Shown here: positions 44,001 through 60,840 of the stretch, piece after piece
Numbering within the stretch: the first letter of the stretch is position 1
Layout of the letters: the number at the start of each line of letters is the position of its first letter
Translations under genes and position numbers: made by a program
Notes under the pieces: model-generated
Seen by the model: only the letters and a program-made list of their open reading frames with translations
Database searches by the model: none
Told to the model about the DNA's origin: nothing
Source of the DNA: an uncultured bacterium
GTDB lineage: Bacteria; Sysuimicrobiota; Sysuimicrobiia; Sysuimicrobiales; Sysuimicrobiaceae
NCBI GenBank assembly: GCA_938028835.1
Contig: CALIMJ010000027.1
Coordinates: forward strand, 6,959 to 70,958
Direction: 5' to 3'
DNA length: 64,000 bases

Positions 44001-44016
44001 TTAAGCGCCCGTTAAG
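44001..44016 (+). promoter_or_regulatory. TTAAG-N6-TTAAG direct-repeat site 1
   Basis: TTAAGcgcccgTTAAG upstream of the amine oxidase. Confidence 0.7.
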
Positions 44017-44087
44017 GGCGGCTGCCGTTGACTCGAAACCGGCCGGGCCCGCAGGGCGGGACGGGTACAGCCGTCAGGAGGAGGTCC

Positions 44088-45674
44088 ATGCGCGCAAGGA
44101 GTGGCGGTCGGACGGTCACGTTCTTTTGGGTCCGGCGCTGGCTGCGGCTTGCGGACCTAGCCAACCGACCCGGAGCTCCGGGGTTGGAGGAGCTGGTGGA
44201 GAGAGGCCGGGAGCGGCGGGTGGGGCGGCGGGAGTTCCTGCGCGCCGCGGGCGGTGCCGCCCTGGTGGCAGCCGGCGAGCTGCTCCGCCCCGTGGAAGTC
44301 CTGGCGGGACCTCAGGCCCCCCGGGTGGTTATCGTGGGCGCGGGGATCGCCGGGCTGGTGGCCGGCTACCACCTGCGTCGGGCCGGGATCCGGGCACGGA
44401 TCTACGAGGCCAGTACCCGTACAGGGGGCCGCATGTTCTCCGTGGCAGGGGCCGTCGTCCCGGGCCTGGTGACCGAATTCGGCGGGGAGTTCATCGACAC
44501 CGGCCACGAAGACATGCACCGTCTGGTGCGCTCGCTGGGTCTGCAGCTAATTGACCTTGAAGGGGGTCCGGAGGCCCGCCTGCGCCCCACCTTCTACTTC
44601 GACAGCCGCCCCATCGCAGAACCGGAGGTGGTGCGCGCGTTCCAGCCCCTGGCCCGACGGATCCGCCAGGACCAGGACGCCGTGGGCGACGTGGTCACCT
44701 ACCGCCAGCACAACCCGCGTGCCCGGGAGCTGGATCGCATGTCCGTCTCCGAGTACCTGGACCGGATCGGGGCGTCCGGGTGGATGAGGGAACTGCTGGA
44801 GGTGGCCTACGTGACGGAGTACGGGCTGGACGCGGCCGAGCAGTCCGCCCTCAACCTGGTACTCCTGATCGGTACGGATCCGGGGTCGACGTTCGAGGTG
44901 TACGGAGACAGCGACGAGCGCTACAGCGTGCGGGGGGGAAGCGGGCTGATCTGCGAGCGGCTGGCCGCCCTCCTCCGGCCTTCCCTGCACCTGGGCCACC
45001 GACTCGTGGCGATCCGGCAGCGGGGCAGCGGTTACCGCCTGGTGTTCGAGCGCAGGGGAGCCGGGACCGTGGAGGTGGACGCGGACTTCGTCATCCTCAC
45101 CGTTCCCTTCACCCTCCTGCGACAGGTGGAACTGCAGGTCGACCTGCCACCCGCCAAGCGGCGGGCCATCCAGGAACTGGGCTACGGTACCAACAGCAAG
45201 CTCATCCTGGGGTTCCGGCAGCGGGTGTGGCGCGCCGGAGGCTCCTCCGGCGAGCTGTTCACCGACCTGCCGTTCCAGAGCGGGTGGGACAGCAGCCGGG
45301 GCAGGCCTGGCACCGCGGGCACGTACACGATTTTCCTCGGCGGCCGGGCGGGGGTGGAGGTGGGCGACGGCCTGGCCGCGGAGCAGGCACAGAGGGCGCT
45401 GCCGGACCTGGAGCGGGTCTTTCCCGGGGTCCGGAGCGCGTACACGGGCCGGGTGGCCCGCTGGCACTGGCCCTCGGATCCCTTCGCGCGGGGCAGTTAC
45501 GCGTGCTGGAAGGTGGGACAGTACACCACCATCGCAGGCGCCGAGTTCGAGCCCGTGGGTCGGCTGCTGTTCGCGGGCGAGCACACGAGCCTGAACTACC
45601 AGGGCTACATGAACGGCGCTGCGGAGACCGGAAGGCGGGCCGCACAGCGGATCCGCAGGCTCGTGCGCAGGTAG
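44088..45674 (+). CDS. Flavin-containing monoamine oxidase family protein
   Basis: GAGIAGL, EA..R.GGR, GGEFID, GSY, FAGEH, GYMNGA; GRREFL Tat-like motif; GGAGG RBS. Confidence 0.88.
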   Translation: MRARSGGRTVTFFWVRRWLRLADLANRPGAPGLEELVERGRERRVGRREFLRAAGGAALVAAGELLRPVEVLAGPQAPRVVIVGAGIAGLVAGYHLRRAGIRARIYEASTRTGGRMFSVAGAVVPGLVTEFGGEFIDTGHEDMHRLVRSLGLQLIDLEGGPEARLRPTFYFDSRPIAEPEVVRAFQPLARRIRQDQDAVGDVVTYRQHNPRARELDRMSVSEYLDRIGASGWMRELLEVAYVTEYGLDAAEQSALNLVLLIGTDPGSTFEVYGDSDERYSVRGGSGLICERLAALLRPSLHLGHRLVAIRQRGSGYRLVFERRGAGTVEVDADFVILTVPFTLLRQVELQVDLPPAKRRAIQELGYGTNSKLILGFRQRVWRAGGSSGELFTDLPFQSGWDSSRGRPGTAGTYTIFLGGRAGVEVGDGLAAEQAQRALPDLERVFPGVRSAYTGRVARWHWPSDPFARGSYACWKVGQYTTIAGAEFEPVGRLLFAGEHTSLNYQGYMNGAAETGRRAAQRIRRLVRR

Positions 45675-45681
45675 CGCCTCC

Positions 45682-59590: not shown

Positions 59591-60240
59591 ATGCGCGAGC
59601 CACTCCTGGTGGCCTGGCAGGCCGCCGGTCGGATGGACCCCGCGGTTCGCGGGGCTCCTCGGGCCGGAGGTCCGGCAGGCCCTCCTGCACCTTGCCCGCG
59701 AGGTTCCGTGGAAGCCGATGCTGGCCGTGCGGGGAGGATACGCGTTCGCCCTTATCCCGTGGTCGGGCTTCGCATCGACGTCCGCTGGATGCGGGACAAG
59801 GCGGTGCGGGACTTGCGGGTTCCGGTGCGAGCGGTATGCCTCGCGGGCCTATCGGCCGGGGTCCCGGGCGAGCGGCTGCTGGAGCAGCTGCGGGGGAGTC
59901 GTTCTGAGCGCGTGGGGCTGTGGACGGAAGGTTCCGCCGGATCCTGGAATTGCTGCAGACGAGACTCGACGGCGCGCTCGCCGACCGAATTCCGCTGTGC
60001 GCGAGCTGGAGCAGGAGGGGACGCGGATCGCCGGGCTGGCGCGGGTGGCTCACGGCCTCCGGATCGTGTTCGCGGTGGTCCTTTAGAAAGCCGTTTTTCG
60101 TCCGTTACCCGCGGGAGCAGGACCCGCCGGTAGCCGTGGCGGGACTGAAGGTCGTCTACCGGACGCGTGGAGCTGGCAGGACCGTGTTCCGGGGCGTGGT
60201 AGCGGCCGCCCGCCTCCCGGGGGAGGGTAGCTCGAGGCCC
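59591..60240 (+). pseudogene. Possible multiply frameshifted gene remnant
   Basis: ATG right after the PrsW-5 stop; protein-like segments alternate among the three + frames. Confidence 0.35.
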
Positions 60241-60798
60241 TCACGGCACCGCCTTCACCTGGTACCGCCGCAGCGTCTGCACGACCCGGACCTTCTGGGG
60301 GTCGCCCAAGCGTACGAAGTCGAACTTCAGCAGCCGGGTGTGGGGGCTGTAGGCCACCACGAAGATGGCCGTCTCCGTGACGAGCATGTAGCCTCGTTCG
60401 TGGGTCACCCCGTCCCCGTCCAGATCCAGGTCCACGGTGCCGCGCCGGAGGGGGAGCACCGCTTTGGGATCGTCCCGCTTCAGGGGAACCAGGAGGCGAG
60501 GTTTGTCGGGGTCCACGGGGCACAGCCACGCGTCCAGCCCGGTGGCTTTGCCGGAGCTGTCCAGAATCTCGCAGCGGGAAGTCAGGAGGAGGTTGTGGGT
60601 GGGGTTCCGGTACCGGCCGTCGGGGGTGCGCTCCACGCGAAAGAAGACCTGCTCCGGGACGGGCGACGTGCGCACCACCGTCTCCGCCCGGAGTTCCCTC
60701 TGCCAGCCGCCCACCGAGCGCACCTCGTAAGCGCGGGCCTGCAGGCCGCCTGGGAACGCGGCGAGGAAGACAAGCGCGGCCACGAGGGGTGCCCGCAT
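60241..60798 (-). CDS. Exported protein of unknown function
   Basis: Signal peptide MRAPLVAALVFLAAFPGGLQARA; 185 aa. Confidence 0.7.
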   Translation of the reverse strand: MRAPLVAALVFLAAFPGGLQARAYEVRSVGGWQRELRAETVVRTSPVPEQVFFRVERTPDGRYRNPTHNLLLTSRCEILDSSGKATGLDAWLCPVDPDKPRLLVPLKRDDPKAVLPLRRGTVDLDLDGDGVTHERGYMLVTETAIFVVAYSPHTRLLKFDFVRLGDPQKVRVVQTLRRYQVKAVP

Positions 60799-60824
60799 CC
60801 TGAAACCTTAATGGCACCTGAGGC

Positions 60825-60840
60825 CTTAAACCAGGCTTAA
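60825..60840 (-). promoter_or_regulatory. TTAAG-N6-TTAAG direct-repeat site 5
   Basis: Minus strand TTAAGcctggtTTAAG upstream of 60798. Confidence 0.75.

Follow-up and report, generated by a model that had tools for sequence, protein, structure and literature searches.

TTAAG direct repeats predicted to be the promoter boxes of a 901-aa STAND-TPR-SARP regulator on an accessory island of an uncultured bacterium

We analyzed a window of 64,000 nucleotides (nt) from an uncultured bacterium (C27:6959-70958 of genome G000, assembly GCA_938028835.1; 2,162,289 bases in 52 contigs, 71% G+C), in which five direct repeats of the form TTAAG-N6-TTAAG accompany the gene of a 901-amino-acid (aa) regulator; coordinates are window positions unless a contig is named. 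Genes were listed on the basis of third-position G+C and Pfam, and the locus was compared with 40 genomes of the same order, f1 being the family that includes G000. Our tallies over these relatives, whether for the motif, the regulator, PrsW or OmpR-type regulators, include one genome flagged as unpublished (G023), and the conclusions are independent of it.

The repeats and the regulator gene lie on an island of 16,994 bases (17.0 kb; 43923-60916), with site 1 at 78 nt from its left border and site 5 at 76 nt from its right border. The exact motif occurs in the window at 44001-44016 (+), 51262-51277 (+), 57755-57770 (+), and 60825-60840 (-), compared with a mean of 0.00 and a maximum of 0 in 100 dinucleotide-preserving shuffles, and a relaxed TTAAS-N6-TTAAS search added site 2, TTAAGGCGATTTTAAC, at 48493-48508 (-), with one changed base. 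Each of the five is intergenic, 26-71 nt upstream of a start codon. More specifically, site 1 (TTAAGCGCCCGTTAAG) is followed after 11 nt by the hexamer TTGACT (44028-44033) and stands 71 nt before the ATG at 44088; site 3 (TTAAGCGGGCTTTAAG) begins 23 nt past the regulator stop codon, is followed after 11 nt by TACCCA (51289-51294), and lies 44 nt ahead of the ATG at 51322; site 4 (TTAAGCCTGGCTTAAG) has CAGGCT (57782-57787) after 11 nt and lies 30 nt before the ATG at 57801; and site 5 (TTAAGCCTGGTTTAAG, minus strand), with CATTAA at offset 11, lies 26 nt before the ATG at 60798 (-), where a TAAGGT positioned 6 nt ahead of that ATG corresponds to a leaderless geometry. Site 2 (48493-48509, -) occupies the spacer between two divergent start codons, GTG 48458 (-) and the regulator's GTG 48534 (+). 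Its minus strand continues for 11 nt to GACACT, and its plus strand (48494-48509) reads TTAAAATCGCCTTAAG and ends 24 nt before the regulator GTG. An earlier reading of the bare sequence (the original prediction) had described five direct repeats of exact 11-bp period, each intergenic and just upstream of a transcription unit, and our pattern searches of the window and genome bore out both statements. The interval that it assigned to site 2 on the minus strand (48494-48509) is one base off, the minus-strand motif being at 48493-48508.

The original prediction had also called for a genome-wide scan, and by that scan the motif is not common: the whole G000 genome contains four exact copies, every one of them between 44001 and 60840 of the window. 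No copies of the pentamer pair were found genome-wide at spacers of 4, 5, 7, 8, 15, 16, or 17, and relaxing the pattern to TTAA[GC] gave two more sites, one each on C13 (where it counts on both strands) and C8. Within the window, a scan allowing up to 2 mismatches disclosed no additional independent site. The pentamer itself occurs 105 times on both strands of G000, 12 of them within 43901-60900 of the window, and is thus 6.4-fold rarer than base composition predicts (673). This rarity is mostly compositional, pentamers with four A/T being generally rare (median 198). Other repeats of related words with an 11-bp period exist in G000, namely at C16:10444, 13776, and 13800 (including TTAAGATCGCGTAAAG twice, 24 bp apart) and as a GTAAG/TTAAG/GTAAAG triple at C13:105656-105667 and 106985; they lack the spacing to a -10 element described below and are probably sites of other winged-helix regulators.

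The regulator gene (48534-51239, +) encodes a protein comprising a STAND NTPase with the P-loop APYGYGKT, a TPR-like region, and a SARP module made up of a winged helix-turn-helix (wHTH; residues ~685-780) and a BTAD domain (784-896). Pfam identified nSTAND_NTPase5 at residues 11-98 (4.7e-10; 39.9 bits, cut-off 34) and BTAD at residues 784-896 (1.3e-11); when residues 682-901 were searched alone, BTAD scored 1.2e-12 and Trans_reg_C scored 0.0046, below cut-off. Residues 670-901, modeled with 24 homologues, gave a structure with a mean predicted local distance difference test (pLDDT) score of 94.1. Its only PDB matches below 1e-3 (n = 6) were the AfsR SARP domain (8k60 chains J and I; 8hvr chain I) and EmbR (2ff4, 2fez), with template modeling (TM) scores of 0.60-0.67 over ~246 columns, the EmbR match having a Foldseek E of ~1e-8 and a TM of 0.65-0.67. 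Likewise, a profile of 22 full-length homologues matched MalT (8bob, 3.7e-12) at the N terminus, TPR proteins at positions 323-627 (at the sequence level, with E down to 5.6e-17), and AfsR (8hvr) at positions 687-897, and G-x-G-K-T is invariant across all 22. The NCBIfam MalT model NF003420 gave 5.3e-6, far under its cut-off. The protein is thus a MalT-like STAND NTPase joined to a TPR region and a C-terminal SARP module, and it is the only island protein in which Pfam finds a DNA-binding domain. Databases label its family "BTAD domain-containing putative transcriptional regulator" or "SARP family transcriptional activator"; PADLOC returned no defense-system match for the regulator, the PrsW proteins, or the proteins without a family. 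A review describes the SARP family as exclusive to actinobacteria, with an N-terminal module (PMC10972967, available part). The present regulator is not one of the classical SARPs (small, medium, large, or SARP-LAL), because its module is C-terminal and its hosts are not actinobacteria: orthologues occur in metagenome-assembled genomes labeled Armatimonadota and homologues in Thermus, Meiothermus, Trueperaceae, and Deinococcales.

The genes around the sites mostly encode predicted membrane, anchored, or secreted proteins. Unit 1, behind site 1, is a flavin amine oxidase/desaturase-like gene (44088-45674, +; Pfam Amino_oxidase, 3.5e-61), whose ATG is preceded by GGAGGAGG and which gave the sole PADLOC match in the island, to a desaturase-type model. 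The divergent unit starts after site 2 with a PrsW-like protease of 311 aa (47523-48458, -) and continues with a polytopic membrane protein of 625 aa without a family (45682-47559, -), a homologue of which is present in the G006-type contig L048. Unit 4 (51322-57672, +), delineated from open reading frames (ORFs), Pfam, paralogy, and fold, is an eight-gene operon without an internal site at up to 2 mismatches. It comprises a small membrane protein (51322-51672), PrsW1 (51689-52753), a Pro-rich anchored protein (52750-53442), PrsW2 (53468-54616), an anchored PsbP-like protein (~54650-55440; start uncertain, inside a longer spurious frame), a PsbP-fold protein (55451-55987), PrsW3 (55991-57142), and a further PsbP-like protein within ORF 57034-57672 (start uncertain). 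Unit 5 holds an anchored protein of 179 aa (57801-58340, +), paralogous to the product of 52750-53442, and PrsW4 (58405-59589, +). Unit 6 encodes a 185-aa protein with a signal-peptide-like start (60241-60798, -), for which L048 has a homologue of 79% identity; the protein matched no family in Pfam or NCBIfam, and an Atlas look-up gave scores of at most 0.78 and no family.

The four numbered PrsW paralogues score 90-168 bits against Pfam PrsW-protease (PF13367) and the fifth, divergent one scores 26.2 bits (cut-off 23.5); protease activity is predicted. The three of these that are most alike (53468-54616, 55991-57142, and 58405-59589) have in common, behind the membrane domain, a C-terminal tail of ~100 residues (…RRLW…W…LR.YYD…AF…) without a family match. 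Of the three paralogous PsbP-type proteins of unit 4, the single one modeled (55451-55987; pLDDT 89) adopts a PsbP/Mog1 fold, the best match being the cyanobacterial PsbP 2xb3 at 1e-7, followed by LpqN, MTC28, and DcrB. In ORF 54067-55440, only the last ~260 codons (from ~54650) look coding; their product has a membrane anchor followed by a Pro-rich linker and a domain that is a paralogue of the PsbP-fold protein at 55451-55987. Imperfect tandem repeats of 42-60 nt at 52850-53060 (inside 52750-53442) and at ~54750-54950 encode Pro/Ala/Gln-rich linkers (PAQPAPP-like), and such linkers join the membrane anchor to the folded domain in the anchored proteins of the island.

The right border of the island is a tRNA-Ile (GAU) gene (60917-60993, -). 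The distance from the GroEL gene to the M20 peptidase gene is 18.9 kb in G000 and 19.7 kb in G003, where the island occupies the equivalent position, versus 1.4 kb in G007. The homologue of 43431-43922 is followed by tRNA-Ile within ~25 nt in G007 and ~50 nt in G005, and the 17.0 kb is missing from G007. As the segment is present or absent as a unit among the compared genomes, the five sites and their genes constitute one accessory island. A search for att-type repeats of the tRNA-Ile end at the left border returned only 9-mers, the other repeats being only those of gene paralogues, and no integrase or recombinase was found among the island ORFs scanned with Pfam. Beyond the tRNA gene, a Gfo/Idh/MocA oxidoreductase is split between two overlapping frames (61113-61577 and 61517-62209), which hold its N-terminal Rossmann and its C-terminal domain; this is a frameshift in either the gene or the assembly.

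Full-length orthologues of the regulator (61-86% identity) were found among the 40 relatives only in f1, namely in G001, G003, G004, G006, G008, and G010, with fragments in G002; NCBI records assign the orthologues to Armatimonadota, a label taken here as given. Each orthologue adjoins three or four full PrsW genes and has motif sites at matching intergenic positions, and such PrsW arrays are confined, among the f1 genomes searched, to the six with a complete locus. Exact sites on the regulator contig number 4 in G000, G004, G008, and G010 and 3 in G003 and G006; the 4.1-kb regulator contig of G001 has 0 exact sites and 1 one-mismatch site. Among the f1 genomes in which no orthologue was found (completeness 83-100%), G009 and G011 have 0 exact sites and G005 and G007 have 1 each, without the -10 spacing and without any regulon homologue.

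Mean column identity in the orthologous intergenic alignments is 54-60%, and the invariant columns are essentially the pentamers. Both TTAAG words are invariant in 6/6 genomes at site 3 (after the regulator stop) and in 6/6 at site 5 (before the 185-aa gene). TTAAGC and TTAAGG are kept in the 4/4 genomes aligned at site 1 (before the amine oxidase gene), and TTAA-N7-TTAA is invariant in 7/7 genomes in the divergent spacer of site 2. Two other readings of these spacers were dropped. A hairpin at site 3 (GCGGGC-TTTAA-GCCCGC) is not kept in the orthologues. A palindrome of CTTAAG half-sites fits site 4 and some site-2 orthologues; the invariant columns are those of the direct repeats, and together with the fixed, one-sided position of the -10-like hexamer they argue for a directional box and against a palindrome.

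The position of that hexamer can be followed through the orthologues. Those of site 3 have TA at offset 10-11 in 6/6 genomes, and the five G000 hexamers at offset 11 have A at position 2 in 4/5 and T at position 6 in 3/5. In the site-5 group, the motif ends 26, 25, 26, 26, 29, and 22 nt before the start codon in six genomes, as expected for leaderless or nearly leaderless transcripts. With the hexamer placed at -12 to -7, the pentamers are predicted to lie at -39 to -35 and -28 to -24, forming a 22-bp box from about -39 to -18; read as heptamers (TTAAGnn), the 3' repeat is 8-9 bp from the hexamer. No -35-like hexamer was found between the repeats at the conserved promoters. The available part of PMC10936776 gives an 11- or 22-bp distance between the direct repeats of SARP targets and places the 3' repeat 8 bp from the -10 element; it gives -40 to -19 as the extent of the afs box and describes two SARP protomers side by side on it, replacing the contact made by sigma region 4. 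All five sites have direct repeats at 11 bp, and at the predicted positions they also have the corresponding spacing to the -10 element (a hexamer 10-11 nt after the pentamer); judged from these distances, the TTAAG box would lie about where the AfsR box does.

A box in that place might also be read as an operator, with the regulator acting as a repressor that blocks the core promoter: a protein bound at about -39 to -18 could occlude RNA polymerase, and the site 2 box lies 24 nt before the regulator start codon on the opposite strand. We regard this as improbable. The conserved promoters have no -35-like hexamer between the repeats, and a spacing to the -10-like hexamer that is fixed within one base across two phyla (see below for the second) is the signature of an activator that contacts polymerase; moreover, the characterized SARPs act as activators in the available parts of PMC10936776 and PMC10972967. 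That RNA polymerase reads the repeats directly, through an alternative sigma factor or as an UP-like element, with no dedicated factor, appears extremely unlikely, even though the sites always lie at promoters and AT-rich words in GC-rich DNA could serve as UP-like elements. PrsW proteases are linked to sigma-W control in Bacillus. Pfam finds no sigma-factor gene in the island, and a pentamer repeated at 11 bp ahead of a housekeeping-type TAnnnT is unlike the two-block layout of a sigma promoter. In addition, the element occurs only beside one regulator family in the genomes of two phyla, with 4 copies in G000.

According to the original prediction, the regulator may also control its own gene through site 2, which is not well supported in G000. 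The plus-strand site does lie close to the regulator start, but the minus-strand site in G000 faces the divergent PrsW-like gene. In seven genomes, a promoter-proximal TTTAAG and an nAnnnT hexamer at offset 11-13 (GACACT and GAGAAT twice each, CAGCAT, CACTGT, and CACCAT) face that gene. In the direction of the regulator, the distance from the end of the site to the start codon is 24 nt in 4/7 genomes and 11, 33, and 42 nt in the others, with no -10-like hexamer following. Autoregulation through site 2 is therefore doubtful in G000, because the site faces the divergent gene; some effect of the site on the regulator's own promoter is possible.

Homologues in Deinococcota provided a second set of loci. 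A scan of one genome per species, with the regulator family alignment as query, returned 34 loci (L049-L082) with homologues at 32-45% identity. Most of the homologues are full-length, and most of the loci belong to Trueperaceae, Thermus, Meiothermus, other Thermaceae, and Deinococcales. Exact TTAAG-N6-TTAAG is present in 11/34 loci. In 499,324 bases there are 15 strand-specific sites, none lying more than 6.4 kb from the regulator gene, and 8 further loci have versions with one mismatch. TAnnnT stands at offset 10-11 in 9/15 exact sites, and elsewhere in the 0-23 range of offsets it occurs only once; of the other six exact sites, four have CAnnnT or TAnnnA at offset 11. Genome-wide, a 3.4-Mb Trueperaceae genome has two exact sites, both flanking the regulator, and a 5.1-Mb genome has one of its two there. 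No homologues (E <1e-5) of the island's other proteins were found in the 34 loci, and the genes beside the Deinococcota sites are mostly without a family, a few carrying VWD, Big_2/fn3, or M42 domains.

Near four of these regulators (L052:4033, L061:6891, L068:9631, and L060:13589), TTGAC-N6-TTGAC replaces TTAAG, with TAnnnT at 10-11 nt in 3/4. In the recognition helix, the residue after the invariant NNL is S in 3/4 and R in one of the TTGAC-type loci, and H, N, G, or Y in the TTAAG-type loci; one Meiothermus locus combines NNLS with a TTAAG/GTAAG site. Seen in so few cases, a covariation of residue and pentamer is at most a lead to a possible specificity switch. In two Thermaceae contigs, two sites bracket the regulator gene (L053:1476 and 4215; L078:3301 and 6028). 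One of them faces the regulator, with CAGAAT or CAGCAT at offset 11 and the open frame 23 nt after the motif, and the other directly follows the regulator stop, as does site 3 in G000. From this layout, positive autoregulation is likely in the genomes of these two contigs.

A different protein could in principle read the same repeats, since OmpR/PhoB-type response regulators bind hexamer repeats spaced by 11 bp. In other families of the order, exact motif clusters of up to 6 sites in 20 kb do lie among OmpR-type regulator and kinase genes, and an OmpR-type homologue (58% identity) is encoded at C27:73651-74340, ~6 kb beyond site 5 and 2.7 kb past the window end. The look-alike loci are L036-L039 (G029:C14, G012:C13, G036:C23), L040, and L042-L044, often with a third repeat and a consensus of approximately GTTAAGGTTnTnTTAAGG; their neighbors encode cupredoxins, a molybdopterin oxidoreductase with a 4Fe-4S subunit, DUF881 proteins, and M23 peptidases, and the sites there are probably the regulon of that OmpR-type response regulator. 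The look-alike sites differ from those of the island: TAnnnT at offset 10-11 occurs in 0/23, the third repeat is present 11 bp upstream in most, and their orientation is away from the adjacent gene. True orthologues of the OmpR-type regulator (67-75% identity) exist in seven f1 genomes, whereas G000 and G008 have only a paralogue of 57-58%, and yet all of their exact sites (4/4 each) lie in the STAND-SARP locus. Furthermore, the position of the OmpR-type gene relative to the island is not conserved, the gene being on other contigs or, in G010, ~100 kb away, and the Deinococcota loci have only the STAND-SARP gene in common. These differences, together with the missing OmpR-type orthologue, answer the proposal that a response regulator, rather than the STAND-SARP protein, binds the island repeats, which we consider very unlikely; they also mean that a bare pentamer repeat is not diagnostic by itself.

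Several observations weigh against assigning the five sites to the 901-aa regulator: (i) the look-alike class beside OmpR-type two-component genes in the same order makes the pentamer non-exclusive to this regulator; (ii) the -10-like hexamers of G000 are weak, none being a strict TAnnnT at offset 10-11; (iii) even with 1 mismatch allowed, 15/34 Deinococcota-type loci lack a TTAAG-type site, these 15 including some short contigs and four loci with the TTGAC variant; (iv) in G041 (4.4 Mb), 4/5 exact sites lie away from the regulator copy examined; (v) G045, a low-G+C, fragmented genome, has 47 exact sites versus 16 for the reversed control; and (vi) we infer activation rather than repression from two grounds, the behavior of the family and the missing -35 element. 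The original prediction that the OmpR/SARP-type wHTH of the regulator encoded at 48534 binds the 11-bp repeats near -35 and activates these promoters is nonetheless supported by comparison, through the SARP fold, the conserved pentamers, the same spacing between repeat and hexamer beside the Deinococcota homologues, and the standing of the regulator as the sole island protein for which Pfam gives a DNA-binding domain. On these sequence comparisons, we put at roughly 80% the probability that the five sites are promoter boxes of a self-contained regulon run by the 901-aa STAND-TPR-SARP regulator.

Under this regulon model, the regulator would sense a cytoplasmic signal through its NTPase/TPR part and would occupy the two TTAAG repeats, which are spaced by one helical turn, with two adjacent C-terminal SARP modules. 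The repeats would cover the place of the -35 element that these promoters lack, and the bound pair may then recruit the housekeeping RNA polymerase, like AfsR at the afs box ("sigma adaptation"). Five or six units would thereby be switched on: the amine oxidase, the PrsW-like protease with the large membrane protein, the eight-gene operon, the PrsW pair, and the secreted 185-aa protein. The role of the system might be a signal-triggered remodeling or proteolysis at the cell envelope.

In its mode of action the system would resemble AfsR on the afs box, and in its domain layout it resembles MalT. AfsR of Streptomyces coelicolor (8k60, 8hvr) likewise combines a SARP module with a STAND-type NTPase and TPRs, and its two direct repeats, 11 bp apart, overlap the -35 element at ~8 bp from the -10, the box being centered near -29 (available part of PMC10936776). 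However, the order is SARP-NOD-TPR in AfsR versus NTPase-TPR-SARP here, where the NTPase is MalT-like/nSTAND5 and not NB-ARC by Pfam; the word here is TTAAG, the hosts are not actinobacteria, and the targets would be envelope protease and secreted proteins instead of an antibiotic pathway. MalT of Escherichia coli (8bob) has the same order of NTPase, helical/TPR-like sensor, and C-terminal DNA-binding domain, but it ends in a LuxR-type HTH where the present protein has a SARP module. MalT boxes are not known to consist of TTAAG words at 11-bp spacing. According to the available part of PMC6468293, MalT activates a small regulon and needs both an inducer and ATP to do so.

Among other relatives, EmbR of Mycobacterium tuberculosis (2fez, 2ff4) shares the SARP fold, but has a C-terminal FHA domain and no NTPase. 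The CheY-SARP regulators of Deinococcus (COG3947, e.g., Deide_19260; available part of PMC3564903) also carry a C-terminal SARP module on a signaling protein; their input is a receiver rather than a STAND NTPase with TPRs, and that part of the paper gives no targets or motif. The SARP-LAL proteins (PimR, FilR, SanG) resemble the regulator in combining a SARP module with a large ATP-binding domain and in using heptameric direct repeats, but their SARP module is N-terminal, they are actinobacterial, and they control polyene or nucleoside antibiotic clusters (PMC5930380 and PMC10972967, as far as the available parts go). A full-text literature search, supplements aside, returned no paper on this architecture, the motif, or a PrsW/PsbP-fold regulon. 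What thus appears new is a SARP-type activator with reversed domain order, outside actinobacteria, with a promoter code common to two phyla and an envelope-protease island as its putative regulon.

A broader proposal seems moderately probable to us: that the regulator belongs to an old, previously undescribed clade of "inverted" SARP activators (STAND NTPase, TPR, C-terminal SARP) outside actinobacteria, which would use a nearly universal TTAAG-N6-TTAAG-N11-TAnnnT element (with a TTGAC variant) common to Deinococcota and the phylum of G000, and would travel as a cassette of regulator and regulon, one cytoplasmic sensor thereby controlling changing sets of envelope and secreted proteins, which in G000 comprise the five PrsW proteases with their PsbP-fold partners. 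SARP activators have been studied almost solely as switches of antibiotic synthesis in Streptomyces. The promoter code described here is sharp enough to predict whole regulons, as with four exact genome sites falling in one island, and, if the proposal is true, regulons would be readable from sequence alone in hundreds of genomes. The finding itself provides promoters that can be tested directly and, for thermophiles such as Thermus and Meiothermus, a candidate system for inducible expression, and it lends itself to asking whether AfsR-type "sigma adaptation" is older and wider than the actinobacteria.

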